Shown piece by piece: positions 1 through 63,442 of a stretch of 64,000 bases of DNA. Within the stretch, counting starts at the first letter, position 1; every line of letters starts with the position of its first letter. Below the pieces are notes generated by a model. The model was not told where the DNA came from. It saw only the letters and a program-made list of their open reading frames with translations, and did no database searches. The translations under genes were made by a program, and so were the position numbers. Location: positions 1-64,000 of IMG/VR virus record IMGVR_UViG_3300040801_001819. One strand, given 5' to 3'. Origin of the DNA: a virus.

Positions 1-3000
1 ATAAGATTCTATGTTTCTAGACCCTATTCCTGCATAATTAGGAGTAAGAGTTGGAGTAGGTATTTCTACCCATTTACCATCCATGGCCTTATACCATTTT
101 TTAGATTTAAGATCCCATAAGTGTACAGGTTTATTCATTTTTTGCGCAAGTGTAACAGCAGTATTAGTTCCACCATAAACAGCGGCGTTAAATAAATCTG
201 TATCCATCTCTGCAATAGCAAATACACTATCAGAATTAGCTACTTGATAATAGTTTCTAACTTGTAGATTACCTTTTAAGTCATCTGCATATTTTATACC
301 AGTAAGTCTTTCAACCTCTTTTCTAGCAAGATCCATCTCTTCTTTAGAAAGAACAGTAGCAGAAGATGTTTTTTTAATCCCAGATGCAACTCTTGCATTA
401 TTAGCATCTTTATAGTGTTTATGATTTACAACACCAAATTCTCTACCTATTTGATCCCAAAATGAATCAGCACCATAAGCTCCACCTGAATGATTTGTAA
501 AATTAGAAGGATTTATTTCAGAAACAGCTTTATCTATGTTTACCTCTGTATATTGTAATCCAGTTTCAAGGTCAACATTAGCAATAACAATTTCACCAGA
601 TTCTTGATCAATCATATCGTATCTATCACCTGAATTTTTAACCCAAATATGATTATCAGGCATATTATCTCTGCCTTCAGTCTTTCCATTTGTAAATTCA
701 GAAAATAAAGTATAAAAAGTAAAGAATTCATTAGGCAACTTTCCTTGTGAAGATGCTATATATTTCTTAAAAGAAGCTATATCTTCATCAAATATAATCT
801 TTTTTGAAACTTCTCGAACATTCTCACTTGGAGTATTTTCTTGAACACTCACACCTGTTCTTTCTTCAACAAATCCAGGATCAGATCTAAGTTGTTTCAT
901 TATATCTCTAATCTCACCCTTAATCTTAGTAGGAACATTATTTCCTTCAACAACAGACTTAGTAGGAGCTTCTTTTTCATTATATTCGAAGATACTACCT
1001 TTACTAGATTTGTGTCCAAGCTTATGTGTACGAGTATATACAGGATTTCCATTAACTTCTCCTCTTAATATGAATAAACCATAATTTGGAATAGCACCTT
1101 TATCATATACTTCTTTTTGATTAAGCATTACTTTTGTAAATTTAGGGAATGTTTTATTACCCATAAAATCTACATCAACTGCAACAGAATATTTTTCTTC
1201 GTCACTGATAAATCCAGTTCCAAGACTAAATAAACTTCCGAAACCTTTTATTTTATCAGCTCTAAGCTCAGGAACTAATTTAGAACCCAATGTTTTATTA
1301 TCCCATTGATGTCTTAGCATTTGATCTTTAAAGTCTTCACCTGCAACCATATTGTCAACAGTTCTAAACATCTCATCAATCTCAAATGCAATACCTTGTT
1401 CTGCAAAGAAATTATGTGGGATATGTGAAAAGAATTGATTTAAATTATTATTAAATCCAGATTGTGAGTACGCGTATCTTATTAAATCTAGTCCAAGCTT
1501 TCTTTCGGCCGGATCAGAAGAATTAAGTAGTTGAGACCACGCTCTGTATATTCTATTGTTAAAACTTTTTGTAGCTGTTCTAGAATCTATTCCTAAAAAT
1601 TCGTATCCACCTGAAGTCTCTATTCTAAATTCTTGAATTAAGAAATTATCACTAGTTTCCTTAAGCGCAGAAATTTGTTCTGGTAAAACTTTAAATAAAT
1701 AATCATGATCTGAGTTGTTATCTTTAAAGACAGACAATCCAGACATAGAATAAGATCTAAAAGAATTTTCTAACACTCTTCCTAATTCAGGATCAGTTAA
1801 TAATCCTTTTCCCAAAGCTTCAGATACGCTGTCAAAAGCATGCAATACTTCTTGCTTACCAGCCAAGAATAAATCACTAGCTTGTAATACATCGCTAACC
1901 CATAACACTCCATTATGATAGTAATGACCCATCATGGTAGATGTAGCATGTGCATCAGTAAACCCTTTAGAAGCATATCCTAATATTTTCTTAGCATTAA
2001 GAACAGCATTCACTTTATTTTTAGCAATATGTAAAGGTAGAACTCCACCTCCATTACCTTTGGTATCAGCTTTAGCAGCAGAGACACTGGCGTTGAAAGC
2101 TCGTGCATGATCTTGAAAGAATTCAAATATATCCAGGATCTTGCCTTGTTCAATTTTCTCTTCAGTAGTAAGGGCGCCTTCTTTTTTAATTGCAGCCTCC
2201 ATATTAGATGGGTTTAAAGCAGCAACATCAGCTTCAGTAGCATCACCTTTCTTAACACCATATTGTAATCTAATATACTCCATTGGAGTTACAGTTTTGC
2301 CTGAGTCTCCAAAAGTTAATCTTCTTGCAGTTTTACCATCTGACATATTTATAACATCAACTAAATCTTTAAGAATAGGTTGACCTATAAATCTGTTAAC
2401 CCATGATACAGGAGCTCCTGCTCGTAATAACATAAATGTAATACCTGCTGTATGAACATTGTGGTTGCCACGAGAAATATAAGGATCTTTTGCAATATCA
2501 ACATACGCGTTTAAGAATGCAGATAGTACATCACTAATGCTATTCTTACCATCTGTGTCTGTAAGGTTATCAAACTTTGTATTACCTTTAGAGTCTTTAT
2601 GTCCAATACCTAAGTATCCGTTAAGCGTAATGTTTAAACTTTGGTTACTTACATGGTCCACTAACTGGTTTGCAGTCTGTGCCACACCGAACTTACCAGA
2701 CAAGTATTCAAACTTAGTCTTAATTTGTTGTATAGGGCTCATAAACTGTAAACTTCCTAACTCTTGTGGAGGAAATAAACCAATAATATCATTCTTTAAG
2801 AAACCAGCGTCAATTGATGTCATCATTTGGTCGTAAGTGTGAGGACTTGTAAGAACACTAGTATATAAATCTACTAGCATATTTTGCTTACCTTTTTTAG
2901 AGTCCATGTTACTTGGTACCTTTTGGATTTTTCCATCTCTCACTTCAAGGTGATGCGTCATAACATACATCTTGTCTATATCAAAGTCACTACCAGTCTT

Positions 3001-6000
3001 ACCAGGTACAGCATCGTAAGCAATAATACTATCTCCTAACTCAGGAGGAAGTATACCAACAATCTCTAACGGATCATTAGAAGACATCCCTTGGTTAGGT
3101 ATTCTATACGCAACCATTTGTAGTGCACTAGGATCTAAAATTTCCTTAAGCTTAGCAGCTGACATGTTCCATGGATTTATTCTCTGTGGATCATTCTCAT
3201 CTTTAAATTGTTTGTTATATTTATCAATAGTGCTTCTTATTGCACTATATGGTAACATTGCTTGACCAGGTAAAACTTTTCCAGTCTTTTTATCAATACG
3301 TGGTGGCTTTAATCCTTTTGGATCATAGTTATCAGATACTATTTTGATACCGGATCTAAGAATTTTAGTTGGGCCAGTATTTACACCCAATTCTTTTTGA
3401 GCAAGATTTAATCCTTCTAAAAAAGCTTTATCAATTAACTGATTTGTGTTGTGAGTAAATTCTTTATATTTAACTAATTTTTTAGCAGATTCAGAATTAC
3501 GATTTTGTTTAAAACTTTCTACAACTAGCGTTTTCATCAATCCTAAACTATCTGCATCCTTCATTTCAGCAATTGTTCCTTTTCCTCTTATTTTTTTTCC
3601 ATAACCTCCTATTTTATTATAAGCATCGTAAGTTTCTTTATCAAAATCTCCTGATTTGTTAGATTGATATGCATGCTCAACACTGCCGTATTCTTTACCT
3701 TTATATGTAAATCTTCTTTCTGCTAAATTAGATAAAACTTTTGTAGATTTACTTGATTCAGCTTGACCGTAATAAACATTTATAGTTCCTTCTGGAGCAT
3801 CTTCTTTTACTATTTCTTTTACAGACTCTAATCCAAAAGGAGAAACTTGAATAAAACTACCACCATTGGTTTTAACTTTAATAAGTTCTTTATTAAAAAT
3901 AGACATAAAGATACTTTGTACTCTTCCTGCTAATTGAGGAATAGCATCAAATGGCATCTCTTTTTCTAAGGCTGAAATAATATTTTCATCTCCACCTCTT
4001 GATTTAAATTCGTCAATAAGAGCCTCATAGACTGCCGTCATATTAGTAATCTTATTATCTTCTCCTATTCCGAACTTAGCACCAAGTGCTTCTCTTCCCT
4101 CTCCAACTAGTGATCCAATAGTATCATGAATCATTTGCATGATTTCTCTACCAGTTTTAGGTTCGCCATTAAGTTCATAGTTAGCTAATTTAGAAGATAA
4201 GTCAATACCAGCTAATATGTTCTTTTGGATTTGAGATCCAGTAAGAGTATCATGAATAAGCTTTGTAGGTAGATCTTGTTGTAACTTCCAGCCTGAATTA
4301 ATTAAAGGAGTTGAATTTAATTCAAATTCTGCTAATAACTCACCGTCTTTAGTGTGAATATCTGTTATTCCTTTTGCTCCAACTTTTACGCCGTCTCGAG
4401 TAATAACTTCATGAAGTTCATCTTTTTTATTAACATATGGCTCACCTGTTGCAGGATCTATTGTCATCTTATCGTATAGAGCTTGCATTGGAGTGTTTTT
4501 AACTAAACTAGGAACTAATACAGCCTGTGAATATTTTAAATATACAGGACGTCCGTTATTAATTTCGAAATATACACCTTTCAATGATTGAGCAGCAAGC
4601 TTAAGTTCTTTAGGCCCTAGCTCTTTGCCATCTATCATTTTCTTGAATACTTTCTCATGCTGAGCACCCCATTGGCCTAATCTCTCTTTAAGAAACTTCC
4701 ATCTATAAGGAGTTATCCATGCTTGAGCATCAGTGGTATTTATTCCTCCATTCACACCAGGTATTTTGTCATAAACTAAAGCTATACTTGCATTAGCTTG
4801 ACTTAGTCCATAATATTTAGAAGGGTAATTTACATCAGTGCCTGGAATTACAGATCCTTTTTTTATAATAGGATCTCCTTTTTTATTTCTTATTTTTAAA
4901 GAATTAATTATTTCATCTAAAAACTTAGAGGCAACCTCAACACCATTAACTGTTGCTTGATTAAAATACTTGTGATCATTCTCACTAAGTCTTAATTGTA
5001 ATCCATCAGTATATGTTGCAGGAATACGCTTAATTAAATCACTTTGATTTTTGTAGTAAGCAGGATCACCAGAAAATAACTTAGTATATTCAATAGTAGA
5101 AATAAGTCCATTAACCACATAATCACCAACCATTGTATGTACTGGTGAACTTTGAGATTCATATGAAGCCATTAAAGATTTATCAATAGTAAGGGCCTTT
5201 AATCCACCCTTTTCTTTTGGATCAACTTCTATAATTTTATTTTTTCTTAACTCCTGAAGAGTTTCTTTCATTCTATCCTTGATAGCTTGTACAACAAATG
5301 GTCTTAAAGCCTCTTTCTGAGTATTAGATAATCCAGAAATTGTAGATTTTTTAGGACGGTTATTATCATATAAGATAGCTCTAACTTCCTTAGAAGCTTC
5401 AGCAGGTGAGAATTCTGGAAACAATTGAGACTTAAGCGCATTCATACTCTTAGTATGATAGTGCTCTATCTTTTTTGAATCAGGAAGATTATCTATTTGA
5501 TCAGCTGCTTCAGCCATCCTGTTATATTCATCTTCAAAGTAGCCTATAAATATATCAGATGTAGCATCATCAACCTCTGTTCCTTTACCATTAGTATATA
5601 CTATACCTGTTTCAAACATTTCGAAACCTGCAAGATCCATTTTACGGGATTTATCAGCCGGAACAATAGTAGGAAATAATGACTTTTGGGCAGAAGCTTT
5701 CTTACCAAGAATTTTTACCATACTATCATTAATAGCATCAGCAATTGTTATATTAGTATTATCAACACCGTCATTTTTATTTTTGGATTTCATAGAGCTC
5801 GACAAGCCTATTTGAACATCCTGAATTCTTTCTAATGATTTAGCTTCGCGTTCACTATCATTAACAATGTCAGCAGCTAGTAAGTATTTTAACCATCTAG
5901 AATTCTTGTTATAAGTTAAGCTAGCTAAAGCTTGTATATCCATAGTATCATCTACTCCAGCTTGCTGTTTCCAGGAATTAAGCTTGTTATGTAAATAACT

Positions 6001-7677
6001 TAATGAAGAATAGGTCCAATATGTCTTACCTTCATTACCAACAATTGTATTCTCAGATAATTGAATAGCACTCAATCCTCTTGCAGTAGCTAATCTACCT
6101 AATACTAATTGATCATCAAATGGATTTTTAAATTCACCAGCTACAACAAATGGAGCTTTATCATCTTTTATGATAGCCATGGTTCTTTCCATACCTTCAT
6201 ATAAAGCTTTTACTTCACCATATCTTTTTTCCGGATCACTAACCTGAAGAATGAAGTTACGCATATCAAGGTTATTAACGTTGATACCAAGCACATTCAT
6301 TGCTCCCATTAAAATAGGAAGATTCTCACTAATACTTTTAATTTTAGACGCTAATGTTCCTCTTGTTCCTACTTGACCAATAAATTTTTTCTTTGACTCA
6401 GTAATCATGTCAGATATTTGTTCAATATCGACAGCTTTATTCATCTTACCCTTGCTGGTTAAGAATTTCTTTCTAAAATTACGGCCCCATTCAGCTTTAA
6501 GCTTACTAGATCTCGAGTTTGTAGAAGAAGCATTGATTACTTTTATATTACGACCGTTAACTTCAGTTACATAATAATCAAGTTGAGCTTTAGAGAAAGC
6601 TTGAAAAAATTCTGTAATTTTATTTCTTTCACTAATCTTCTCTGAAGTATTTAATTCTTTTAGTCTGTCTACTAATCCTTCTGTCCATGGCTTAACTAGT
6701 TTTAAGCCCTCAAGCTTCTCAACCATTAAGTCAAATACATCCTGAACATCTCCTCCTAAGTTAAAGTTAACTAAGTCAGATAGCATTGGCTCCAATGTAG
6801 TCCATACGTCATCAAATTCAACAAACTGTGGTTTACCTAAAAACCTACCAGGAACAGTAGAAATAACCATTTCATTTTTACCGTTCTCATTTACATATGG
6901 AGTTCCGTCAGGATTTTTCCTAAGCTCTCTTTTAGTATCTAATACAGTGGATAATAGTAACTTTACATTTACAGACGCAGTGTCTTTAGAATTCTTTGTA
7001 AAGCTTTCAGCGAAATTCATTCCAGTGGATTTGTCTTCTTCAGCCATTTCCACTTCTGGATTTCCATTCTCATCAGTTAAGTCAACAATTTGATCCTTTC
7101 TAGCACCTGCTTTAATACGCTTGCTTGATGTAAGACCCATGTCTTCAATTTGATTCCTTACCTCAATAACAAAATCATCTTTATATTTTTCAATAAGATC
7201 TGCACGCATTTGTGCATCAGGATCTCCTACATTTTCAGCTCTATAAGCATCAATGCTAGATTGAATAGACTCAGATATCTTTAGACCTTTTATATTCTCA
7301 ATGTTATTAAAATCAAATCCTTCCTTAGTTGAGAACAACTCATATCTAAGTTGATTAGTGATTTCAAATACGTCGTCTGGATCTATTTCTGGAAACTTAA
7401 TCTTGTTTAAGAAGTCTTTCTTGCCATTCTTAAGTTTATAGTAGAATTGGTTACCAGATTTAAATAATCTAGGATAACCATTATCATCTTGCCTTAATGC
7501 ACCTTGTTTGTCAGTCCATTTAGCATCTTTATTATTTTCCCAATCGCCGAATACTTGTTTGAATGAATCAGAAGCAATTCTTCGTGCTTCTGCATTAGCT
7601 AGTTCTTGAGTTCCCAAAATGGTAACTAGCTTTTCCTCAAACTTCATGGCGCCTATACAATTCGAATTCTTTCCCAT
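1..7677 (-). CDS. giant virion-packaged RNA polymerase (crAss-like vRNAP); N-terminus complete, C-terminus runs off the window; at least 2559 aa
   Basis: Absent from the ORF track because there is no stop inside the window. My manual minus-strand translation from ATG 7677 (or in-frame ATG 7647) is stop-free to nt 1 (7677 = 3 x 2559). The track lists no minus-strand ORF fragments in 1-7700. It has the RNAP beta-prime-like metal motif GSDFDIDKM (nt 2974-2988), preceded by AYRIPNQGMSS. It lies downstream of the ejection-protein block, as in crAss-like phages. Confidence 0.85.
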   Translation of the reverse strand, partial: MGKNSNCIGAMKFEEKLVTILGTQELANAEARRIASDSFKQVFGDWENNKDAKWTDKQGALRQDDNGYPRLFKSGNQFYYKLKNGKKDFLNKIKFPEIDPDDVFEITNQLRYELFSTKEGFDFNNIENIKGLKISESIQSSIDAYRAENVGDPDAQMRADLIEKYKDDFVIEVRNQIEDMGLTSSKRIKAGARKDQIVDLTDENGNPEVEMAEEDKSTGMNFAESFTKNSKDTASVNVKLLLSTVLDTKRELRKNPDGTPYVNENGKNEMVISTVPGRFLGKPQFVEFDDVWTTLEPMLSDLVNFNLGGDVQDVFDLMVEKLEGLKLVKPWTEGLVDRLKELNTSEKISERNKITEFFQAFSKAQLDYYVTEVNGRNIKVINASSTNSRSSKLKAEWGRNFRKKFLTSKGKMNKAVDIEQISDMITESKKKFIGQVGTRGTLASKIKSISENLPILMGAMNVLGINVNNLDMRNFILQVSDPEKRYGEVKALYEGMERTMAIIKDDKAPFVVAGEFKNPFDDQLVLGRLATARGLSAIQLSENTIVGNEGKTYWTYSSLSYLHNKLNSWKQQAGVDDTMDIQALASLTYNKNSRWLKYLLAADIVNDSEREAKSLERIQDVQIGLSSSMKSKNKNDGVDNTNITIADAINDSMVKILGKKASAQKSLFPTIVPADKSRKMDLAGFEMFETGIVYTNGKGTEVDDATSDIFIGYFEDEYNRMAEAADQIDNLPDSKKIEHYHTKSMNALKSQLFPEFSPAEASKEVRAILYDNNRPKKSTISGLSNTQKEALRPFVVQAIKDRMKETLQELRKNKIIEVDPKEKGGLKALTIDKSLMASYESQSSPVHTMVGDYVVNGLISTIEYTKLFSGDPAYYKNQSDLIKRIPATYTDGLQLRLSENDHKYFNQATVNGVEVASKFLDEIINSLKIRNKKGDPIIKKGSVIPGTDVNYPSKYYGLSQANASIALVYDKIPGVNGGINTTDAQAWITPYRWKFLKERLGQWGAQHEKVFKKMIDGKELGPKELKLAAQSLKGVYFEINNGRPVYLKYSQAVLVPSLVKNTPMQALYDKMTIDPATGEPYVNKKDELHEVITRDGVKVGAKGITDIHTKDGELLAEFELNSTPLINSGWKLQQDLPTKLIHDTLTGSQIQKNILAGIDLSSKLANYELNGEPKTGREIMQMIHDTIGSLVGEGREALGAKFGIGEDNKITNMTAVYEALIDEFKSRGGDENIISALEKEMPFDAIPQLAGRVQSIFMSIFNKELIKVKTNGGSFIQVSPFGLESVKEIVKEDAPEGTINVYYGQAESSKSTKVLSNLAERRFTYKGKEYGSVEHAYQSNKSGDFDKETYDAYNKIGGYGKKIRGKGTIAEMKDADSLGLMKTLVVESFKQNRNSESAKKLVKYKEFTHNTNQLIDKAFLEGLNLAQKELGVNTGPTKILRSGIKIVSDNYDPKGLKPPRIDKKTGKVLPGQAMLPYSAIRSTIDKYNKQFKDENDPQRINPWNMSAAKLKEILDPSALQMVAYRIPNQGMSSNDPLEIVGILPPELGDSIIAYDAVPGKTGSDFDIDKMYVMTHHLEVRDGKIQKVPSNMDSKKGKQNMLVDLYTSVLTSPHTYDQMMTSIDAGFLKNDIIGLFPPQELGSLQFMSPIQQIKTKFEYLSGKFGVAQTANQLVDHVSNQSLNITLNGYLGIGHKDSKGNTKFDNLTDTDGKNSISDVLSAFLNAYVDIAKDPYISRGNHNVHTAGITFMLLRAGAPVSWVNRFIGQPILKDLVDVINMSDGKTARRLTFGDSGKTVTPMEYIRLQYGVKKGDATEADVAALNPSNMEAAIKKEGALTTEEKIEQGKILDIFEFFQDHARAFNASVSAAKADTKGNGGGVLPLHIAKNKVNAVLNAKKILGYASKGFTDAHATSTMMGHYYHNGVLWVSDVLQASDLFLAGKQEVLHAFDSVSEALGKGLLTDPELGRVLENSFRSYSMSGLSVFKDNNSDHDYLFKVLPEQISALKETSDNFLIQEFRIETSGGYEFLGIDSRTATKSFNNRIYRAWSQLLNSSDPAERKLGLDLIRYAYSQSGFNNNLNQFFSHIPHNFFAEQGIAFEIDEMFRTVDNMVAGEDFKDQMLRHQWDNKTLGSKLVPELRADKIKGFGSLFSLGTGFISDEEKYSVAVDVDFMGNKTFPKFTKVMLNQKEVYDKGAIPNYGLFILRGEVNGNPVYTRTHKLGHKSSKGSIFEYNEKEAPTKSVVEGNNVPTKIKGEIRDIMKQLRSDPGFVEERTGVSVQENTPSENVREVSKKIIFDEDIASFKKYIASSQGKLPNEFFTFYTLFSEFTNGKTEGRDNMPDNHIWVKNSGDRYDMIDQESGEIVIANVDLETGLQYTEVNIDKAVSEINPSNFTNHSGGAYGADSFWDQIGREFGVVNHKHYKDANNARVASGIKKTSSATVLSKEEMDLARKEVERLTGIKYADDLKGNLQVRNYYQVANSDSVFAIAEMDTDLFNAAVYGGTNTAVTLAQKMNKPVHLWDLKSKKWYKAMDGKWVEIPTPTLTPNYAGIGSRNIESY

Positions 7678-47632: not shown

Positions 47633-47653
47633 TTCTTTCCTCTCTTTTTATTG

Positions 47654-47727
47654 TGGTATTAAATGGAATCGAACCATTGACACCCCACGGCTTCAACATG
47701 GTGCTCTACCTACTGAGCTATAATACC
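47654..47727 (-). tRNA. tRNA-Phe (anticodon GAA)
   Basis: Hand-folded cloverleaf on the minus strand. Acceptor GGTATTA/TAATACC; D arm GCTC-AGTAGGTA-GAGC; anticodon arm CCATG-TTGAAGC-CGTGG; T arm AATGG-TTCGATT-CCATT. No encoded CCA. Confidence 0.8.
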
Positions 47728-47944
47728 AAATAACAGTGGGCGAGGAGTATTTTTTGACAACTTTGCCTCCCCGCGAATCACTGTTGATGTTACACAGGCG
47801 CCGCATCTTAACCATATTTTACAACTATAGCTTGCGGCATTCTGTGTTGATTTTAATACTGTTGCAGGTTACAATCCGACTGTAACGCACAATGCTTTCA
47901 CATTAGCTCTGCCACCTGAGACTTACTGCATTAGATTTTATTAG

Positions 47945-48017
47945 TAGCGTGTCTCAGATTTGAACTGAGGATCTCTGGGATATGAACCCAGCGAGATGGC
48001 CGCTTCTCTAACACGCA
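47945..48017 (-). tRNA. tRNA-Met (anticodon CAT), initiator-like
   Basis: Hand-folded. D stem GAGA/TCTC; anticodon arm CTGGG-TTCATAT-CCCAG; T arm CTCAG-TTCAAAT-CTGAG. Acceptor positions 2-7 pair, while 1:72 is U-U. It abuts the HNH stop codon. Confidence 0.75.
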
Positions 48018-56687: not shown

Positions 56688-56730
56688 AATGATAGGATAC
56701 TCATGCATAATGATAGGATAATGATAGGTT
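56688..56730. repeat. three direct copies of AATGATAGG (iteron-like) next to the A/T tract AAAATTTTTTTTTAAAATTTTTTTT
   Basis: Read directly: TAATGATAGGAT at 56688 and 56708, AATGATAGGTT at 56720, and the A/T tract at 56731-56758. All lie in the divergent intergenic region. Confidence 0.85.
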
Positions 56731-56782
56731 AAAATTTTTTTTTAAAATTTTTTTTGAAGATGAAAATATAGTCGTACGCTAG

Positions 56783-56828
56783 ATAAACCCAAACTTTAGC
56801 CCCACTCTTTTTATATTTTGGGTATAGG
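56783..56828 (+). promoter_or_regulatory. early-promoter-like conserved motif, copy 1
   Basis: ATAAACCCAAACTTTAGCCCCACTCTTTTTATATTTTGGGTATAGG aligns with copies at 57312, 58033 and 58732. Confidence 0.55.
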
Positions 56829-56970
56829 GGTATCACTTTGTGACAGCTCACCTAATTTCAAGAACATGTGGTAGAGCCTGTGCGAAATTAACCCAAATTA
56901 CAGTCATCAGCCCTTTGTGGTTCTACGTAAATGATGTCTAACACCTATGGTAGTGCAGGTGTTTTTATTT
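56829..56970 (+). ncRNA. candidate ~140-nt early sRNA (motif copy 1 to terminator, no ORF)
   Basis: Bounded by the promoter-like motif and the hairpin+T-run at 56940-56970. It contains an 8-bp long-range stem, GTAGAGCC/GGTTCTAC. Only a 2-codon ORF and a 22-codon ATG-ORF are present. Confidence 0.35.
56940..56970 (+). terminator. rho-independent terminator
   Basis: AACACCT-ATGGTAGTGC-AGGTGTT followed by TTTATTT. Confidence 0.6.
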
Positions 56971-57014
56971 CAACTAAATCAATTGGGTATATTAATAATT
57001 AAAACAACTATATT

Positions 57015-57260
57015 ATGAAAACATTCTTTCAAGTAACAGCAATGCTATCACTCACGTTCATAACTATGATGATGAGTATTATTACATTCACAACCATGTT
57101 CAATGATACACCAATACGCCCTTGGAGTAATGAGTCATTGTTATGGAACATTAAAGCACAAACATTCTTATTAGCTGTATATTTTGTATGCAAGATTGGA
57201 ATATATATGTGTAACACTTATGAGTTTAAGGTAAACAAAAAGAGGAGTTATGTAAAATAA
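57015..57260 (+). CDS. small two-TM membrane protein (81 aa)
   Basis: Track ORF with hydrophobic spans AMLSLTFITMMMSIITFTTMF and TFLLAVYFVCKIGIYM. Confidence 0.5.
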   Translation: MKTFFQVTAMLSLTFITMMMSIITFTTMFNDTPIRPWSNESLLWNIKAQTFLLAVYFVCKIGIYMCNTYEFKVNKKRSYVK

Positions 57261-57271
57261 GTAGACATATT

Positions 57272-57300
57272 GGGAGTGTGACAACAGCACTCCCTTTAGC
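57272..57300 (+). terminator. terminator-like hairpin
   Basis: GGGAGTG-N9-CACTCCC followed by TTTAGC (a weak T run). Confidence 0.45.
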
Positions 57301-57311
57301 TTAAATTAATA

Positions 57312-57356
57312 AAAACCTAAACTTCACATATACTCTTATTATACATTGGTAGTTAA
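57312..57356 (+). promoter_or_regulatory. early-promoter-like conserved motif, copy 2
   Basis: AAAACCTAAACTTCACATATACTCTTATTATACATTGGTAGTTAA. Confidence 0.55.
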
Positions 57357-57509
57357 TAATAACTATCACAACTAAATCTCGTAAACTCGTGAAAAATCTT
57401 TATTACATCAATGGAAATGCCATAGTTGCTAGTTCATTACAGGAAGCTTTAATTATTAACAAAGAGGCACAGCAAGTAGCTGTTGCCTCTTAAAAACCAT
57501 AACTAAATC

Positions 57510-57986
57510 ATGGAAAATATAGTAAGATTGGCTTTGGGAACAAAGTTTAAACCAGAAGATATTGATAACATTCTTCTTATTTGTCAAAAGACTGATAACC
57601 TTGAGGTTGCAGTATCAATGTTATTAGGCTTGTATGTTGAGCCTACATTTAATCAATATGCTGAAGATGATAGCTATTATACAAACAAAGAGTTTGTATC
57701 TTATGACCCATTCAAGGATAAAGTGACATTTAAAGGTAACAGAGTTACTAAAGTGTATGCTTGGTTCAAGAAAGATGTTGAGGCTATTGAAGAGAATATT
57801 ATCTCTAACACTTCTTATGTTAATGACGCAATGAGTGAAACTAAATTTAAAGGCACAAGAGATGAATTTGAAGATATGTTTACTCGTAAAGAGTGGAAGA
57901 GAACTGTTAATGATAAAGCAGAAACATCAACTACTTATTCTTATAATTGGAAGAAAGAGGAGATATCTTATGCTTTAGCAGAGTAA
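57510..57986 (+). CDS. early hypothetical protein (158 aa)
   Basis: Track ORF within a monocistronic promoter-gene-terminator unit. Confidence 0.6.
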   Translation: MENIVRLALGTKFKPEDIDNILLICQKTDNLEVAVSMLLGLYVEPTFNQYAEDDSYYTNKEFVSYDPFKDKVTFKGNRVTKVYAWFKKDVEAIEENIISNTSYVNDAMSETKFKGTRDEFEDMFTRKEWKRTVNDKAETSTTYSYNWKKEEISYALAE

Positions 57987-57991
57987 TTAAA

Positions 57992-58030
57992 TTGGGAGAG
58001 GACTAATCATTCTCTTCCAATCTTTTCTTT
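57992..58030 (+). terminator. rho-independent terminator
   Basis: TTGGGAGAG-N11-CTCTTCCAA (9 bp, one G-U pair) followed by TCTTTTCTTT. Confidence 0.65.
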
Positions 58031-58032
58031 AA

Positions 58033-58078
58033 AAAACCCAAACTTTACTCTCAACTCTTTTTATATATTGGTAGTTAG
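58033..58078 (+). promoter_or_regulatory. early-promoter-like conserved motif, copy 3
   Basis: AAAACCCAAACTTTACTCTCAACTCTTTTTATATATTGGTAGTTAG. Confidence 0.55.
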
Positions 58079-58139
58079 TATTAACTATTAGGCTTCATGG
58101 AGTGCCTTTATTAAAACTCCTATAAAATCATTTGAAATC

Positions 58140-58607
58140 ATGAGCAAGAATGTTCTTTCAAATCAGCCTTTAGTTAAGGCACATCCCGTTACAGGATCAA
58201 TTGTAACATATTTTGAAAATTCCAAAGGAGAAACTTTTGGAAAAATACGTGTAGACCAGCGTGCACCAGTAATTAATAATGGCTTCATGTCCTTTGCCAA
58301 TCGTAGTGCTTTCATCACCTTAGATGAAGAAACTGCAAAGGAAATGGAAACAATCCTTGTGGAGGACAAACCTTATCCAATTCAGGGTAAAGTTGTTGTT
58401 ACTGAATCGTTAACACCATTCTACGAGGGGCAAGAGCCTAAGCGTAAAGGTGCAGACGGAGAGGTAATTACTCATTTAGGTGCACCTGTTTATCGTGACA
58501 CTAACTATGTCTTTGACCTTGAGGCTAAAGATACTTTGTTAGCAGGCGATAGAGACGGCGTGGAAACACCTGTTGCTCAAGAGGCATCCTCTGCAACCCC
58601 TGAATAA
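58140..58607 (+). CDS. early hypothetical protein (155 aa)
   Basis: Track ORF within a monocistronic unit. Confidence 0.6.
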   Translation: MSKNVLSNQPLVKAHPVTGSIVTYFENSKGETFGKIRVDQRAPVINNGFMSFANRSAFITLDEETAKEMETILVEDKPYPIQGKVVVTESLTPFYEGQEPKRKGADGEVITHLGAPVYRDTNYVFDLEAKDTLLAGDRDGVETPVAQEASSATPE

Positions 58608-58628
58608 TAGTAAGGGTTAACAGTATTG

Positions 58629-58664
58629 GCCACTCTCATTAATTTGAGAGTGGCTTTTATTATT
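58629..58664 (+). terminator. rho-independent terminator
   Basis: GCCACTCTCA-TTAATT-TGAGAGTGGC (10 bp) followed by TTTTATTATT. Confidence 0.8.
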
Positions 58665-58731
58665 GCGTGAAAAAAGGTTTGCAACAAGTTGCAGAGTTTA
58701 ATTTAATCAATGTAAAAACATTGATTAATAT

Positions 58732-58775
58732 AACCAAAACTTTAAATCCTCTCTTTTTATGCACGGCGGAGTTGC
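58732..58775 (+). promoter_or_regulatory. early-promoter-like conserved motif, copy 4
   Basis: AACCAAAACTTTAAATCCTCTCTTTTTATGCACGGCGGAGTTGC. The 3-prime half diverges from the other copies. Confidence 0.45.
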
Positions 58776-58812
58776 AATACGAACTTTCCCGCGAGATTTA
58801 AATACGAAAGAA

Positions 58813-59085
58813 ATGAAAGATATATCATATAGAGGAGATGATTATAAGGTTGTTGAGAATCCTTTAGGTAGAGTTAGCTGTGATTCTTGTGTATTCTATA
58901 AGACACATTCTAACTTCGGAGGATATAATCCATCTTGTAGAGTAAAACTAGATATGGACTACTACAAAGGCTTTGGGTATAATACTAATGAGCAGAGTAC
59001 AATGTTCTCAAAGTGTGCTATTGGTGTTATGGTGTTTGAAAGCAATAAAAAGTTTAAGAGAAGAGTGTTAACTTGCGTGGGATAA
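58813..59085 (+). CDS. early Cys-rich hypothetical protein (90 aa from Met19 of track ORF 58759..59085)
   Basis: The track ORF start at 58759 lies inside motif copy 4. The ATG at 58813 is preceded by TTAAATACGAAAGAA, as at other starts in this region. Confidence 0.5.
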   Translation: MKDISYRGDDYKVVENPLGRVSCDSCVFYKTHSNFGGYNPSCRVKLDMDYYKGFGYNTNEQSTMFSKCAIGVMVFESNKKFKRRVLTCVG

Positions 59086-59156: not shown

Positions 59157-59312
59157 ATGAGCAGAACATATAAAAAGGCATATACTAAATCTAAAGCTTT
59201 CGATAAAACTTGCAGATGTCATGGTGGTTGTCCTTATTGTGAAGGTAATAGAAAATATTCTACTAAAAAAAGAAAAGAGAAAACTAAAGATGAACTTAAA
59301 AACTTAGAATAA
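59157..59312 (+). CDS. small basic Cys-rich protein (51 aa; CRCHGGCPYCEGNR)
   Basis: Hand-found ORF below the track cutoff, with a zinc-ribbon-like CxC...CxxC pattern. Confidence 0.45.
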   Translation: MSRTYKKAYTKSKAFDKTCRCHGGCPYCEGNRKYSTKKRKEKTKDELKNLE

Positions 59313-60305
59313 TTAAAAATATTTATGAATATTACTGCTACATACGATGTCTTATAATCATCATGCAAGTTACTGACCGTAAGCTAACAGTCTACCTAGG
59401 AAAAGAAATGTTAACTCGGAGGAAATCTATAACCAACAAGCTTTAGAAGAGTAGTTGGGAAAATGAAAGTACAGAACCTTGATATTAATCATTGATAGGT
59501 AAAGTAGTGTAGCAGTAATATCTCATAATTAATTAAGCTCTTTGATTGAAGGTAAACAATAATATGAAGGGTATAGACAAGCGATGCTCTCGTTAAATCC
59601 ATAAGAGCCTTATTATAAATCATTATATCAGAAATGGTTGTGTTTATTGGAAATATAATTATTCAGCATCAGTAGTAACAGATGGGCAAATAGCCGGTTA
59701 CGATGCTTGTTTTAGTTATCCCATAACTGAATTGGGCAAAGAGTTTTTAATAAAAGCGAAGACATAACACACGCTATACTATGTGTTATAAATATAGTCC
59801 AAAACCCTTATGACTTTAAACTGTAACCTACTAGTAATGGTAAAGATTGTAATAAACAAAGGATTACTTGGTATTAATATTTGAAGTGAATAATAGTAAC
59901 TACAAAATAAACATTAATATTTCATAATATATAACAACTGAAAGCGAAACAGCAATTACAATTAGGAATAGATGCAACTGTATGAGATATGTTGCTTAGT
60001 GAATACGAAACAGATAATGCTGATTTAACTGACTAACTGGAAACAGGAAGGTTAAATAATATTCATACTATTGGGAGTTCTCAGCAAGTAGTTAAAGCAT
60101 TGGAGTGTTAGATTCCTCCACCAAAAGTGCGAGTCTTAGAGGCGTGTGTACACTTTAACTACATGACCCTACTCTTATTAAAGAATGGAGAAAGCCTATT
60201 TATAGGTACTTGCTAAAGTGATTAAACCTCGCTTTAATAATAAAGAGGGTGCTAAACCAATAATAAAATTAAAATAATTATAAACAACTTAAAATCATTT
60301 AAAAC

Positions 60306-60458
60306 ATGGCAAAAGGATTTGTATTCAGACCAGAATCATTCTGGGTAGGATTACATTACTCAGAATACAACAGACGTTATTGTCTTAATCTATTGCCATG
60401 TTGTACAATATGGTGGATTAAGAAAGGAGGCAAAGTACCAGAATTAGCTAAAGTATAA
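60306..60458 (+). CDS. small hypothetical protein (50 aa)
   Basis: Hand-found ORF MAKGFVFRPESFWVGLHYSEYNRRYCLNLLPCCTIWWIKKGGKVPELAKV, with an A-rich AAAATCATTTAAAAC leader. Confidence 0.4.
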   Translation: MAKGFVFRPESFWVGLHYSEYNRRYCLNLLPCCTIWWIKKGGKVPELAKV

Positions 60459-60476
60459 TTTAAAACCAATTAAATC

Positions 60477-60620
60477 ATGACACAAAATGAAAAAGATGTC
60501 TTAAAGATGTCGAAATTAAAGTGGCGCAACTACATGCGTAAGTCTTATCCTAATTTTAAGGTTAAGCAATGGGCTAGGACAAGTTATAGGCTTGCTCACC
60601 CACAAGTAATTAATAATTAA
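60477..60620 (+). CDS. small basic hypothetical protein (47 aa)
   Basis: Hand-found ORF preceded by TAAAACCAATTAAATC, the same context as other plus-strand starts. Confidence 0.4.
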   Translation: MTQNEKDVLKMSKLKWRNYMRKSYPNFKVKQWARTSYRLAHPQVINN

Positions 60621-60640
60621 CCCTAAAACCTTAAAATAAA

Positions 60641-61015
60641 ATGAAAAGATTTTATTATTTAATTGTCCTTTTAATAGGACTAACTATGGTGCAATCATGT
60701 GAAGATGACTGCACACAAGACGCATATTGCGCACTACTATCATCATCAGATTATAGTAAAACATCATTAACAAAAGGTGGAGAAAAAGTCTATGTGTGCC
60801 ACAATGGTGATACACTTTATATAAGCGTTAATGCACTACAAGCTCACCTAGATCATGGTGATACTGAGGGTGAGTGTAGCACATTATCTTCTACTGGACT
60901 AGAATTTAAAGACGGAGCGGTAGTTGAAATACCATGTGATTATGAGTTACCTTTTATACATGTTACAGATAATGGTACTCAATGGTGGTATGGTAAGACT
61001 AGTGATAGGCCTTAA
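60641..61015 (+). CDS. predicted lipoprotein (124 aa), possibly surface-exposed
   Basis: MKRFYYLIVLLIGLTMVQS-C is a signal peptide plus lipobox-like Cys, followed by the acidic EDD. It also has a VYVCHNGDTLYISVNALQAHLDHGD motif. Confidence 0.6.
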   Translation: MKRFYYLIVLLIGLTMVQSCEDDCTQDAYCALLSSSDYSKTSLTKGGEKVYVCHNGDTLYISVNALQAHLDHGDTEGECSTLSSTGLEFKDGAVVEIPCDYELPFIHVTDNGTQWWYGKTSDRP

Positions 61016-61019
61016 TAAT

Positions 61020-61923
61020 ATTTAAAGTATGGGAGGTAGAGTAATCTACACCAGGTCAAGTGGTTTACAGCTTGATATAATAGTCGTTGAATTCGACGTT
61101 ACATAGGAAAGTGCAGAACTAACTGCCGTAACAAATAGCATCATCATCTTTATAATTGGTTGGGTTCCTATCGTTTGGAGCCCAACAACAAAGCCCGCCT
61201 ACGGGGCATAGAATAAACCAGCAATGGTATAAAGTGATTGGAACTTAAGCATTCCAATTGCCATATAAGTTTATAACTTGTATGTCACTGATAGGTATTA
61301 CATTATTATATTGTGGAGCGTCTGTGGTCTAACGGCTGATGACGCAGCAATATAACTGTCCTTTGGTAAGGGAGAGTTGAGCAGAAATGCAATAAGATAT
61401 GTAATAGGCAATGATAGTAGTTCCCGCCAGGAATGAAGTTGTTGTTATTTGTACTCCTCATGCATGTTAAGAGAAATCTATGTGCGCGTTGGTTGCAAAA
61501 GTAAGTAGGGTTGGCACCTGAAAGCAGACAGAAGTTGATAACTAAACTATCCAAAAGATAGCATGTTATACAACTTAAGCAGACTTCTGTTATTTACTGG
61601 CCTAAATCTAAACTAGACAAAGGAAAAACAGCTTGAGACATTGAGAACACAATATTCTTATCCTACTGTAATATGTAGGTACCTACGAGCTCCCAAGGCT
61701 CATGGTAAATGAATAAAGTATTATTGCATTAACAGCGGCCGCGTTGTGAACACAGGGATGTGGATCAGTAAGAAATTGAAATTATAACTCTTAATGTAGT
61801 GGTGTCGAGCACCGTAACTCGTGAATATGTTGTCTACGTGCAGTAATGTACGTGTGTGTATAAATGTGAAAGCATTTACAATGACAATCTTTTAGGGCCA
61901 TCACTCAACCCTAGGTTTTTTTA
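61020..61923 (+). ncRNA. candidate large structured RNA (~900 nt), class unknown
   Basis: No plus-strand ATG-ORF longer than about 23 codons was found by eye, and all three stop codons occur in every frame checked. Local stems are dense, for example TTGGGTTCC/GGAGCCCAA, ATTGGAA/TTCCAAT, GCGTC/GACGC and GTAAATG/CATTTAC. It ends in a hairpin plus T8. Confidence 0.35.
61893..61923 (+). terminator. rho-independent terminator (T8)
   Basis: TAGGG-N11-CCCTA (extendable by G-U pairs) followed by TTTTTTTT. Confidence 0.55.
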
Positions 61924-61943
61924 TTACATTTTAAATACGAATC

Positions 61944-62787: not shown

Positions 62788-62952
62788 ATGGCAAAATTAG
62801 AACAATATTTAGTAGAAACACCGGCAGGTGAAAAATTTAGAGTATTTGCAGCAAACACATATGATGCAGGTAAACAAGTGCTAGCTAAGATAGAATTTAG
62901 AAATTCACTTGTAATTAGCAACACGCTAGTGTCACATCCTGAAATGATGTGA
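62788..62952 (+). CDS. small hypothetical protein (54 aa)
   Basis: Hand-found ORF MAKLEQYLVETPAGEKFRVFAANTYDAGKQVLAKIEFRNSLVISNTLVSHPEMM, preceded by ACAAAACCCTTAAAACA. Confidence 0.4.
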   Translation: MAKLEQYLVETPAGEKFRVFAANTYDAGKQVLAKIEFRNSLVISNTLVSHPEMM

Positions 62953-63352
62953 CAAAAAGTTGCAGAGTAAGATCTTGCAAGTATTAATAACCCCTTGAAG
63001 GGTTAGCTGGTGTGCAAAACCAGTAATGCTTGCAGTATTAATGAGCAGGTGTATAGCTGTAATCAGCACACCGCTGATAAAGGTGGATATATTGAAAAAG
63101 GGTTTGTAGTAGATATATATGAAATCAAGCTGATCAGAAACCCCGAAAGACCCAACCTGCTCTTTTAATCTAGCATACCTGAATGCCGTACTATTTAATC
63201 AGGTGGCCTGTGTGATACAGGCCAAGATATAAACTTCTAGCAAGGAGTTAAAGTAGCATGAAGATGTGAGGATATATAGCCGATCCATTCACCTCTGTTG
63301 TCACAAATCATCGTGGACCATATAGAACCGGGCGTTACGGCTCCTTGAAGTT

Positions 63353-63395
63353 AAACCAAAGCTCAAAATAATATACAATATGGATAAAATAATTG
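63353..63395 (+). promoter_or_regulatory. degenerate early-promoter-like motif (copy 5)
   Basis: AAACCAAAGCTCAAAATAATATACAATATGGATAAAATAATTG shares AAACC.AA.CT.A and TATACA..TGG.TA.AATAAT with copy 2 but lacks the CTCTT box. Confidence 0.3.
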
Positions 63396-63442
63396 ATTAA
63401 CGTACATATTTTTGTTTTGAGCTTATTTAAAAACTAGAACAA

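Follow-up and report, generated by a model that had tools for sequence, protein, structure and literature searches.

A conserved bipartite promoter-type cassette with hairpin leaders at the start of the plus-strand module of a crAss-like phage

The subject of this analysis is a 64,000-nucleotide stretch of a crAss-like phage genome (IMG/VR virus record IMGVR_UViG_3300040801_001819, positions 1 to 64,000; hereafter the window) and, within it, a bipartite sequence motif that is present in four copies at the start of the plus-strand genes. The motif proves to be genuine and strongly conserved. It forms a promoter-type cassette that had not been described before, and we put at roughly 85% the probability that the four elements are dedicated early promoters whose transcripts open with a hairpin leader. 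As to the enzyme that reads them, an injected virion RNA polymerase (vRNAP) of the gp66 type is put forward tentatively, at somewhat less than even odds.

The motif consists of two boxes, AACCNAAACTTNA and CTCTTNTTAT, separated by 6–7 variable nucleotides. This combination occurs exactly four times in the window, always on the plus strand, beginning at 56786, 57314, 58035 and 58732. The four copies (c1 to c4), together with a conserved block that precedes the first of them, are as follows.

56735-56785, plus strand: conserved block upstream of c1, a T9-A4-T8 tract and then GAAGATGAAAATATAGTCGTACGCTAGATA, located where the minus- and plus-strand modules diverge
56786-56822, plus strand: copy 1 (c1); box 1 AACCCAAACTTTA (56786-56798), spacer GCCCCA, box 2 CTCTTTTTAT (56805-56814), then ATT and TTGGG
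57314-57367, plus strand: copy 2 (c2); box 1 (57314-57326), box 2 (57333-57342), then ACA, TT and a stem-loop
58035-58091, plus strand: copy 3 (c3); box 1 (58035-58047), box 2 (58055-58064), then ATA and a stem-loop
58732-58792, plus strand: copy 4 (c4); box 1 AACCAAAACTTTA (58732-58744), box 2 (58751-58760), then GCACG and an imperfect stem-loop, with no TTGG

A scoring matrix built solely from instances in other genomes gives 38.8, 40.3, 42.8 and 30.0 bits to c1, c2, c3 and c4, respectively. No other independent site in the window scores above 8.1 bits, and the maximum over 10 Markov-1 random windows is 12.8 bits. A separate repeat finder places these copies first among the direct-repeat families of the region. 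When two mismatches were allowed, box 1 by itself was found 15 times against 16.6 expected, which is chance level; the signal is thus carried by the joint two-box pattern. A first-pass annotation of the window had reported the four plus-strand copies, and pattern search, repeat finder and matrix all place them where it had. It had also listed degenerate relatives near 59800 and 63353, which at -15 and -18 bits do not belong to the family: in the motif scan over the window nothing beyond the four copies exceeds the random range.

Relatives were gathered by a pattern scan of IMG/VR, by look-ups via the 155-aa protein encoded behind c3, and by a metagenome scan. Across 41 distinct instances the boxes are almost invariant, with box 1 carrying approximately 22 bits and box 2 approximately 18 bits; variation is found in the spacer between them (5, 6 or 7 nt), in the three bases that follow box 2 and in the leader beyond. 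AACC and TNTTAT are 17–18 bp apart (17–18 nt from AAC to TCT), and an A-tract lies immediately 5′ of box 1. Close and mid-distance relatives (L002, L005, L008–L011, L105, L121 and L126) possess the same four copies in the same order, and a c1-type element at the start of the plus-strand module is found also in the more distant relative L003. Within complete-length crAss-like relatives of 94.5 and 109 kb, matches to the c1–c3-type pattern fall in a single cluster of approximately 1.2–2 kb and nowhere else. A search of 2.9 million IMG/VR viral contigs found genuine copies in one only, a crAss-like relative. The T-tract upstream of c1 and an ATAGTCG(T/A)AC block recur in relatives, in chromosomal islands (described below) and, more loosely, in Cellulophaga phage phi14:2.

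The invariance of the boxes amid varying surroundings, the fixed distance to a hairpin, the presence of terminators before copies 2–4 and the departure from the host sigma-A-type consensus found before minus-strand genes make promoter function well supported on comparative grounds. Both the length and the conservation of the motif resemble those of promoters of phage-specific polymerases.

The hairpin deserves closer attention. In copies 1–3 a TTGG(G) stands 5–6 nt past box 2, and it is here that a stem-loop begins.

57348-57367, plus strand: c2 stem-loop, GGTAGTTA-ATAA-TAACTATC; -7.1 kcal/mol, z=-4.7
58068-58091, plus strand: c3 stem-loop, TTGGTAGTTA-GTAT-TAACTATTAG
58766-58792, plus strand: c4 imperfect stem-loop, GCGGAGTT...AACTTTCCCGC; -8.3 kcal/mol, starting at the position equivalent to that in the other copies

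The first-pass annotation had read this segment as a third conserved box, TTGGTAGTTA(A/G)TA(A/T)TAAC. That string is confined to copies 2 and 3; relatives keep TTGG alone, and the rest is the arm of a hairpin. Unrelated stems occupy the same place in relatives (at the position of the c2 hairpin, L008 carries GGGAATA-TAT-TATTCTC), and for this reason a third box, whether as a sequence motif or as a palindromic operator (TAGTTA-N4-TAACTA), was rejected. A perfect stem of at least 6 bp starting from the G of TTGG is present in 18 of 23 distinct c2/c3-type instances, compared to 3.6% of shuffles, and these instances contain 15 different 5′ arms. When 15 distinct c3-type leaders are aligned, 92% of cells are paired, as opposed to 24–52% with the partner slid by one to three columns; 6 of 10 pairs have changed on both sides, and the observed covariation was reached by none of 500 shuffles. 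The alignments identify the supposed third box as the 5′ arm of a stem-loop kept by compensatory changes.

About a quarter of the pairs are G:U, with the G in the 5′ arm, and the mean folding energy is -5.4 kcal/mol for the plus strand against -3.7 kcal/mol for its complement. The better folding of the plus strand and the many G:U pairs lead us to conclude that the hairpin belongs to the sense RNA and not to the template strand. In copy 1 an invariant GGGTATAGGGG is followed by a small hairpin, TCAC-TTT-GTGA (56833-56843), for which relatives carry the compensatory variants GTGA/TCAC, GTCA/TGAC and CTTGCA/TGCAAG.

Because the outermost G pairs of the stem are maintained, the RNA must include them. 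A start at or just 5′ of TTGG would place box 2 at approximately -15 to -6 and box 1 at approximately -35 to -23, and the RNA of c1 would begin near G56820; for c2, c3 and c4 the predicted 5′ ends are 57348, 58070 and 58766 (all four to within 2 nt). Stem-loop stabilizers of the ompA type consist of a stable stem-loop 0–2 nt from the 5′ end of the RNA, and by analogy the 5′ stem-loops described here probably protect the early RNAs.

In the arrangement we favor, two recognition boxes with a free 6–7 nt spacer would direct a start 5–6 nt past box 2, within the G residues of TTGG(G), and the RNA would open with a 7–10 bp stem-loop of variable sequence, probably serving as a 5′ stabilizer. Copies 1–3 would each drive a short unit closed by its own terminator: c1 an approximately 150-nt leader and an 81-aa open reading frame (ORF), c2 ORFs of 34 and 158 aa, and c3 a protein resembling single-stranded-DNA-binding protein (SSB). 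Copy 4 would open into the long remainder of the plus-strand (replication) module. The features of these units are listed in order.

56820-56972, plus strand: c1 leader or short RNA, starting with GGGTATAGGGG and ending in a terminator-like hairpin, AACACCT...AGGTGTT (56940-56963), with a T-run
57015-57260, plus strand: 81-aa ORF behind c1, no family match; L008 and L009 have other ORFs instead
57272-57300, plus strand: terminator-like hairpin at the end of unit 1, GGGAGTG...CACTCCC (57272-57294) with a T-run, kept in relatives
57389-57493, plus strand: 34-aa GTG-started ORF of unit 2, conserved in relatives
57510-57986, plus strand: 158-aa ORF of unit 2, present in L105 and absent from L002, L005, L008, L009 and L121
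57991-58030, plus strand: terminator-like hairpin at the end of unit 2, 12 pairs (57991-58021) with a T-run
58140-58607, plus strand: 155-aa ORF behind c3, for a conserved early protein whose acidic C-terminal tail is disordered, encoded also in chromosomal islands
58628-58655, plus strand: terminator-like hairpin with a T-run after the 155-aa ORF, 5′ of c4
58680-58693, plus strand: short hairpin between this terminator and c4
58703-58728, plus strand: A/T-rich hairpin, TTAATCAATGT-AAAA-ACATTGATTAA, directly upstream of c4
58813-59085, plus strand: 90-aa ORF behind c4; L005 and L008 have unrelated ORFs instead, and homology breaks at its start codon

The c1 leader was also considered as an unusually stable structured RNA, which its folding does not support (z=+0.7). 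A terminator had been claimed before every copy; this holds for copies 2–4, whereas copy 1 is preceded by the T-rich tract at the divergence of the modules. Likewise, the four units stand, but the array covers only the first 2.3 kb or so of the plus-strand region that it was said to organize. In the relative L005 no convincing plus-strand terminator was found for approximately 10 kb after c4, which could explain how a long module manages with four copies.

The ORFs behind c1, c2 and c4 differ among the window, L002/L005, L008/L009 and L105, and homology resumes at the cassettes. Conservation of the promoter/terminator cassettes, while the ORFs between them are exchanged, implies that the cassettes act also as shuffling joints. 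The layout is that of a promoter-early stem-loop (PeSL)-like cassette: terminator/promoter repeats flank variable small early ORFs, and breakpoints of homology between relatives fall at the repeats. The PeSL cassettes of T4-type phages reportedly combine a terminator stem-loop with an early promoter, and they too flank small variable early ORFs and coincide with gene-shuffling breakpoints. They differ in being ordinary sigma-70 early promoters, whereas the motif described here is off the host consensus, is far more conserved and is followed by an additional RNA hairpin after the start.

The breaks in homology between relatives at the cassettes, and the fact that the hairpin is an RNA feature, would also fit an account in which the motif is no promoter at all and is instead an RNA-level processing signal before a protective hairpin in a read-through transcript, or a mere recombination joint. 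In the phage, however, there is no plus-strand gene or transcription unit upstream of copy 1, and copies 2–4 lie behind strong terminators. In addition, the boxes are invariant across lineages whose surroundings have diverged, an invariance that recombination alone does not need. We consider this account very improbable.

If the elements are promoters, the question is which polymerase reads them. The minus strand of the window carries portal, terminase, GroEL-like and tail genes, and the major capsid protein is approximately 52% identical to its counterparts in crAss001 and cr106_1. It carries also the gene that the first-pass annotation had named as that of the candidate reader, and the assignment of this gene is borne out by its match to a known structure.

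3-7677, minus strand: vRNAP gene, a gp66 homologue, with the DFDID motif and a match to PDB 6VR4_A (E=3.1e-215); it runs off the left end of the window

Beyond approximately 56.7 kb, as far as the window extends, the genes are on the plus strand, and consist of small ORFs with no family matches; searches of the early plus-strand ORFs against PHROGs and Pfam gave none. Homologues of one plus-strand ORF come from Tara and other marine samples, from Mariniflexile and from Thalassobellus, on which basis the host is probably a marine member of the Flavobacteriaceae.

The sigma-A promoter of Bacteroidetes/Flavobacteriia is reportedly composed of TTG at -33 and TAnnTTTG at -7. Sites of this kind are found in the window, before minus-strand genes.

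18993, 27084, 48393, 7943, 49359 and 54420, minus strand: sigma-A-like promoters, TTG(AC)-N~20-TATATTTA(CA)

The site at 7943 lies inside the 3′ part of a 1569-aa ORF, upstream of the vRNAP gene. On the plus strand between 56.7 and 64 kb there is no match to TTG-N15-22-TAnnTTT(G/A). Nor do the four copies resemble these promoters. Copies 1–3 have TAnnTTGG in place of the -7 element and copy 4 has nothing similar; used as a -7 element, TAnnTTGG would put the start inside the 5′ arm of the stem, the outer pairs of which are maintained. No copy has TTG 19–21 nt upstream of the -7 position, where the invariant AAC or CTT of box 1 is found instead. A host sigma-A promoter was rejected at the sequence level. 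Accordingly, the plus-strand motif is distinct from the minus-strand boxes, as first claimed, and of the further claim – a promoter read by a polymerase other than that of the minus-strand genes – the promoter is well supported and off host sigma-A, and the polymerase assignment is tentative.

A scan with an Escherichia coli-type sigma-70 model was uninformative (55 sites against 50 expected). The geometry of the motif, two elements 17–18 bp apart, fits the sigma-70 family or extracytoplasmic function (ECF)-type factors. A scan of one genome per species (185,579 species) used the exact 18-base pattern, a stringency at which a degenerate host regulon would escape notice. It revealed no host regulon: there were 86 matches, all single and about as many as expected by chance, and just two were genuine, both in islands (L026 and L075). 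Judged by this exact pattern, the motif is therefore not a general host promoter.

The case for the vRNAP rests in part on comparison with Cellulophaga phage phi14:2. There gp66 transcribes the entire rightward module, which is resistant to rifampicin, and the leftward genes have host-type (sigma-type) middle and late promoters (bioRxiv 10.1101/2020.03.07.982082). The likeness to the window is extensive: phi14:2 has a homologous vRNAP, leftward host-type promoters, four small monocistronic genes (g111–g114) at the start of the rightward module, a homologous early non-coding RNA region and, directly 5′ of g111, the first rightward gene, a c1-type element. This element comprises a T-tract, TAACCTACAATCAT, CCCCCA, CTCTTTTTT and GGAATTGGGG, and a hairpin, GGGGA-GTA-TCCCC, follows immediately; its TTGGGG lies at approximately 98,030 of NC_021806. 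A vRNAP gene in the window, a rifampicin-resistant plus-strand module in phi14:2 and conservation of c1 in phi14:2 thus all speak for the vRNAP as reader. The two phages differ in that the motif has been multiplied and is nearly invariant in the lineage of the window, while phi14:2 lacks copies 2–4. The upstream region of the early genes of crAss001, inspected by eye, contains no similar element.

A number of observations weigh against this assignment, or against the promoter reading as such. The study of phi14:2 detected no common motif ahead of the early transcripts made by gp66, an enzyme that in vitro is inactive on native double-stranded DNA (bioRxiv 10.1101/2020.03.07.982082). Besides the c1-type element phi14:2 shows no c2–c4 copies and no exact boxes; the box scan covered its first 50 kb and returned neither box 1 nor box 2 copies. 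The variable spacing (5–7 nt), with AACC at -35 and TNTTAT at approximately -11 to -6, resembles the geometry of the sigma-70 family. There are only four copies for a plus-strand module of tens of kilobases. Promoter function and start sites, moreover, are predictions from the sequence.

A further objection comes from chromosomal islands. Islands in the chromosomes of Flavobacteriaceae share with the phage the T-tract, a degenerate c1, a fully conserved c3 with its hairpin, and a homologue of the 155-aa gene. The loci are as follows.

Thalassobellus suaedae CP134536.1, 1423634-1444131, reversed: island L014
Mariniflexile sp. and Flavobacteriaceae bacterium S0862, together with at least 10 metagenomic contexts: further examples
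L015, L016, L026, L075, L104, L106, L117, L119 and L123–L125: further island loci

The shared segment sits between integrase/HTH genes and a replication module of AAA_24 (Sak4-like), DUF3871 and AAA_25, with the SSB-like (155-aa) gene – the only gene common to islands and phage – directly upstream of the Sak4-like AAA_24 gene; the island cargo is defence-like (GmrSD, Z1/HATPase). All phage contexts of the motif are crAss-like. In contrast, the islands, which belong to at least three clades and in at least 10 contexts keep the c3 promoter, have no vRNAP and no capsid genes in the 16–20 kb examined. The AAA_24 proteins of the islands have diverged to 47–54% identity, yet the boxes do not vary, unlike the spacers and hairpin arms, and the tree of the linked SSB-like gene interleaves island and phage versions. 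From these observations it follows that the promoter is maintained in the islands too. Because the c3 promoter is conserved in islands without vRNAP, a host enzyme is the simpler explanation of its reader.

The host explanation would have host RNA polymerase reading the same promoters in both settings by means of a non-sigma-A specificity factor, be it a sigma factor (alternative or ECF-type) or a host activator, phage and islands alike exploiting this promoter class. It accounts for the motif being kept before the SSB-like gene and the replication module in integrase/HTH islands that have no vRNAP, and for the invariance of the boxes where the neighboring AAA_24 protein is at 47–54% identity. 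It also suits a bipartite element with a spacer variable by 1 nt, 17–18 bp from AAC(C) to T(C)T/TNTTAT and an A-tract 5′ of box 1; and an injected, probably tethered polymerase would be unlikely to act at a chromosomal promoter, to judge from the biology of phage N4 (PMC4496689). Against these points, the motif fails to match the -33 TTG / -7 TAnnTTTG consensus used by the minus-strand genes; TAnnTTGG is missing from copy 4, and in copies 1–3 it places the start within the conserved stem. Conservation of approximately 40 bits is far above that of usual sigma-dependent promoters, the scan of 185,579 species (86 single matches, two genuine) made no host regulon visible, no other phage type in IMG/VR has the motif, and the whole rightward module of phi14:2 is rifampicin-resistant. 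A host polymerase so equipped is in our judgment only slightly less probable than the vRNAP.

A variant reconciles the islands with the vRNAP: the motif would be the cognate promoter of crAss vRNAP, placed by the islands before their SSB/Sak4/helicase module, and the polymerase injected by an infecting crAss-like phage would switch the island on. We regard this as unlikely. As for the vRNAP itself, named as the obvious candidate in the first-pass annotation, it draws support from the gene in the window, the rifampicin resistance in phi14:2 and the conserved c1, and is weakened by the islands that lack it, by the variable spacing and by the want of a common motif before early 5′ ends in phi14:2.

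The sharing of the SSB-like gene between phage and islands raises one more alternative, in which the boxes are operators for a DNA-binding protein common to both (for example, an autoregulatory 155-aa protein), placed over a weak and unconserved core promoter. The 155-aa protein is indeed the only one that phage and islands share and is encoded directly behind copy 3, and high information content in two blocks some two helical turns apart would suit a protein-binding site. The boxes, however, are neither palindromic nor directly repeated, unlike most operators, and since -40 to +1 contains no other conserved promoter element, the boxes must be the promoter. The structural model of the 155-aa protein (mean pLDDT 80) weakly suggests an SSB/PriB-like OB fold (best Foldseek match E=0.008, TM-scores 0.35/0.53, a weak match) and not a double-stranded-DNA-binding regulator. 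Finally, no phage-made protein is available at time zero, although these are the first plus-strand units. Operators of this kind are in our judgment quite improbable.

The closest functional analogue of the cassettes is the set of three early promoters of coliphage N4, which are read by the injected virion RNA polymerase (PMC4496689). The virion RNA polymerase of the crAss-like phage would fire the four promoters on the first DNA available to it, as the N4 enzyme does at its three. In both systems a podovirus that packages a giant RNA polymerase has a small cluster of promoters where the early region begins (N4 has three, the phage of the window four), with conserved sequence and a hairpin, short early transcripts and an SSB in the system; here the SSB-like protein is among the first products. 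The four copies fall within 2 kb at the start of the plus-strand module, terminators follow units 1–3 and the vRNAP gene is in the window. The hairpins themselves are of different kinds. That of N4 forms on the template strand 5′ of the start, with its centre at -11, and is GC-rich with a 3-nt loop, whereas the hairpin described here is downstream of the boxes and, given its strand-specific G:U pairs, is a feature of the RNA. No inverted repeat was found between or over the boxes in copies 2–4, as an N4-type template-strand hairpin upstream of the start would require; copy 1 has C-run/G-run complementarity around box 2, which copies 2–4 do not have. The N4 enzyme is also T7-like, while that of crAss-like phages is a two-barrel polymerase, and here the reader is inferred.

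A precedent for such a polymerase is P23-45, which has a single-polypeptide two-barrel virion RNA polymerase fused to the tape measure and AT-rich pre-early promoters (bioRxiv 10.1101/2022.12.01.518664). There, too, a conserved motif of at least 15 nt precedes a few pre-early genes, and its conservation is limited to relatives with the polymerase. The two motifs are unrelated in sequence, and the hosts belong to different phyla; in P23-45 start sites were mapped and ChIP-seq performed, whereas here the starts are predicted from sequence, and the motif occurs also in elements without the polymerase.

Sharing of promoters between a phage and an integrated element is known from P2 and P4, where helper phage and satellite share late promoters activated by Ogr/Delta. 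A distinctive promoter motif common to phage and integrated element, as in that pair, allows cross-activation. The differences are that the P2/P4 promoters are late and rely on phage or satellite activators with host RNA polymerase, while those described here are the earliest of the phage; that no shared activator gene was found here except the SSB-like gene; and that the satellite status of the islands is putative.

The crAss-like group counts among the most abundant of known phages. Although it is established that they package a polymerase, the searchable literature holds no description of this motif and no promoter consensus for a crAss vRNAP. A compact and nearly invariant element of approximately 35 nt, with a predicted start, makes recognition by crAss vRNAP testable in vitro; should the element be the cognate promoter, it would be the first to be defined for a crAss-type virion RNA polymerase. 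The islands make the polymerase assignment harder and more interesting. Their possession of the motif is informative either way, pointing to a non-canonical class of host promoter in Flavobacteriia that is used for the first phage genes, or to islands wired to phage transcription. If an island is switched on by the phage polymerase, it would, as a satellite or a defence island, detect infection via the early transcription machinery of its helper. The combination of terminator, promoter and 5′ hairpin is, in addition, a ready expression module for marine Bacteroidota.

Several further observations concern the surroundings of the array. Just 5′ of the T-tract is a triple ATGATAGGATA repeat (56697-56733, plus strand), considered as a set of origin iterons and rejected; it is not conserved in the closest relative and is thus outside the feature. 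Where the window has this repeat, that relative (L001) has an extra minus-strand ORF (337-1080), for which identification as an HNH endonuclease found no support in Pfam. The contig L006 (JGI 3300071328 Ga0612043_0429, 70,303 bp) begins almost exactly at the position of c1; the genome may have a physical end there, beside the early promoters, or the assembly may have broken at the T-tract. GenBank phage nucleotide searches with 5 kb around the array, and with the c1 region, returned no match. The heptamer ATACGAA (approximately 58803, 59127 and 61933, plus strand) recurs in leaders 3–25 nt from plus-strand ATGs and is present also in the loop of the c4 hairpin; a role in translation initiation, or as a signal in the leader, is possible.

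An Rfam search of 54–64 kb found no family for the leaders or for the ORF-free stretches of the early module. Of these there are three on the plus strand, at 59320-60300 (itself without an Rfam match), 61020-61940 and 62940-63440. The core of the first (60075-60255) is homologous, at 74–90% identity, to positions 3195-3359 of phi14:2 (NC_021806), the g004–g005 intergenic region, reported as the source of an abundantly expressed early long non-coding RNA. Non-coding early regions of phi14:2 (1700-1900 and 4470-4500; L127 in our set) also contain T-arm-like GGTTCGAATCC segments, which suggests tRNA-like modules; no equivalent was seen in the window, where the only tRNAs found are tRNA-Phe and tRNA-Met (minus strand, 47653-48017). 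The close relative L002 has a deletion of 62949-63213 and, in place of 59300-61764, approximately 765 bp of other sequence.

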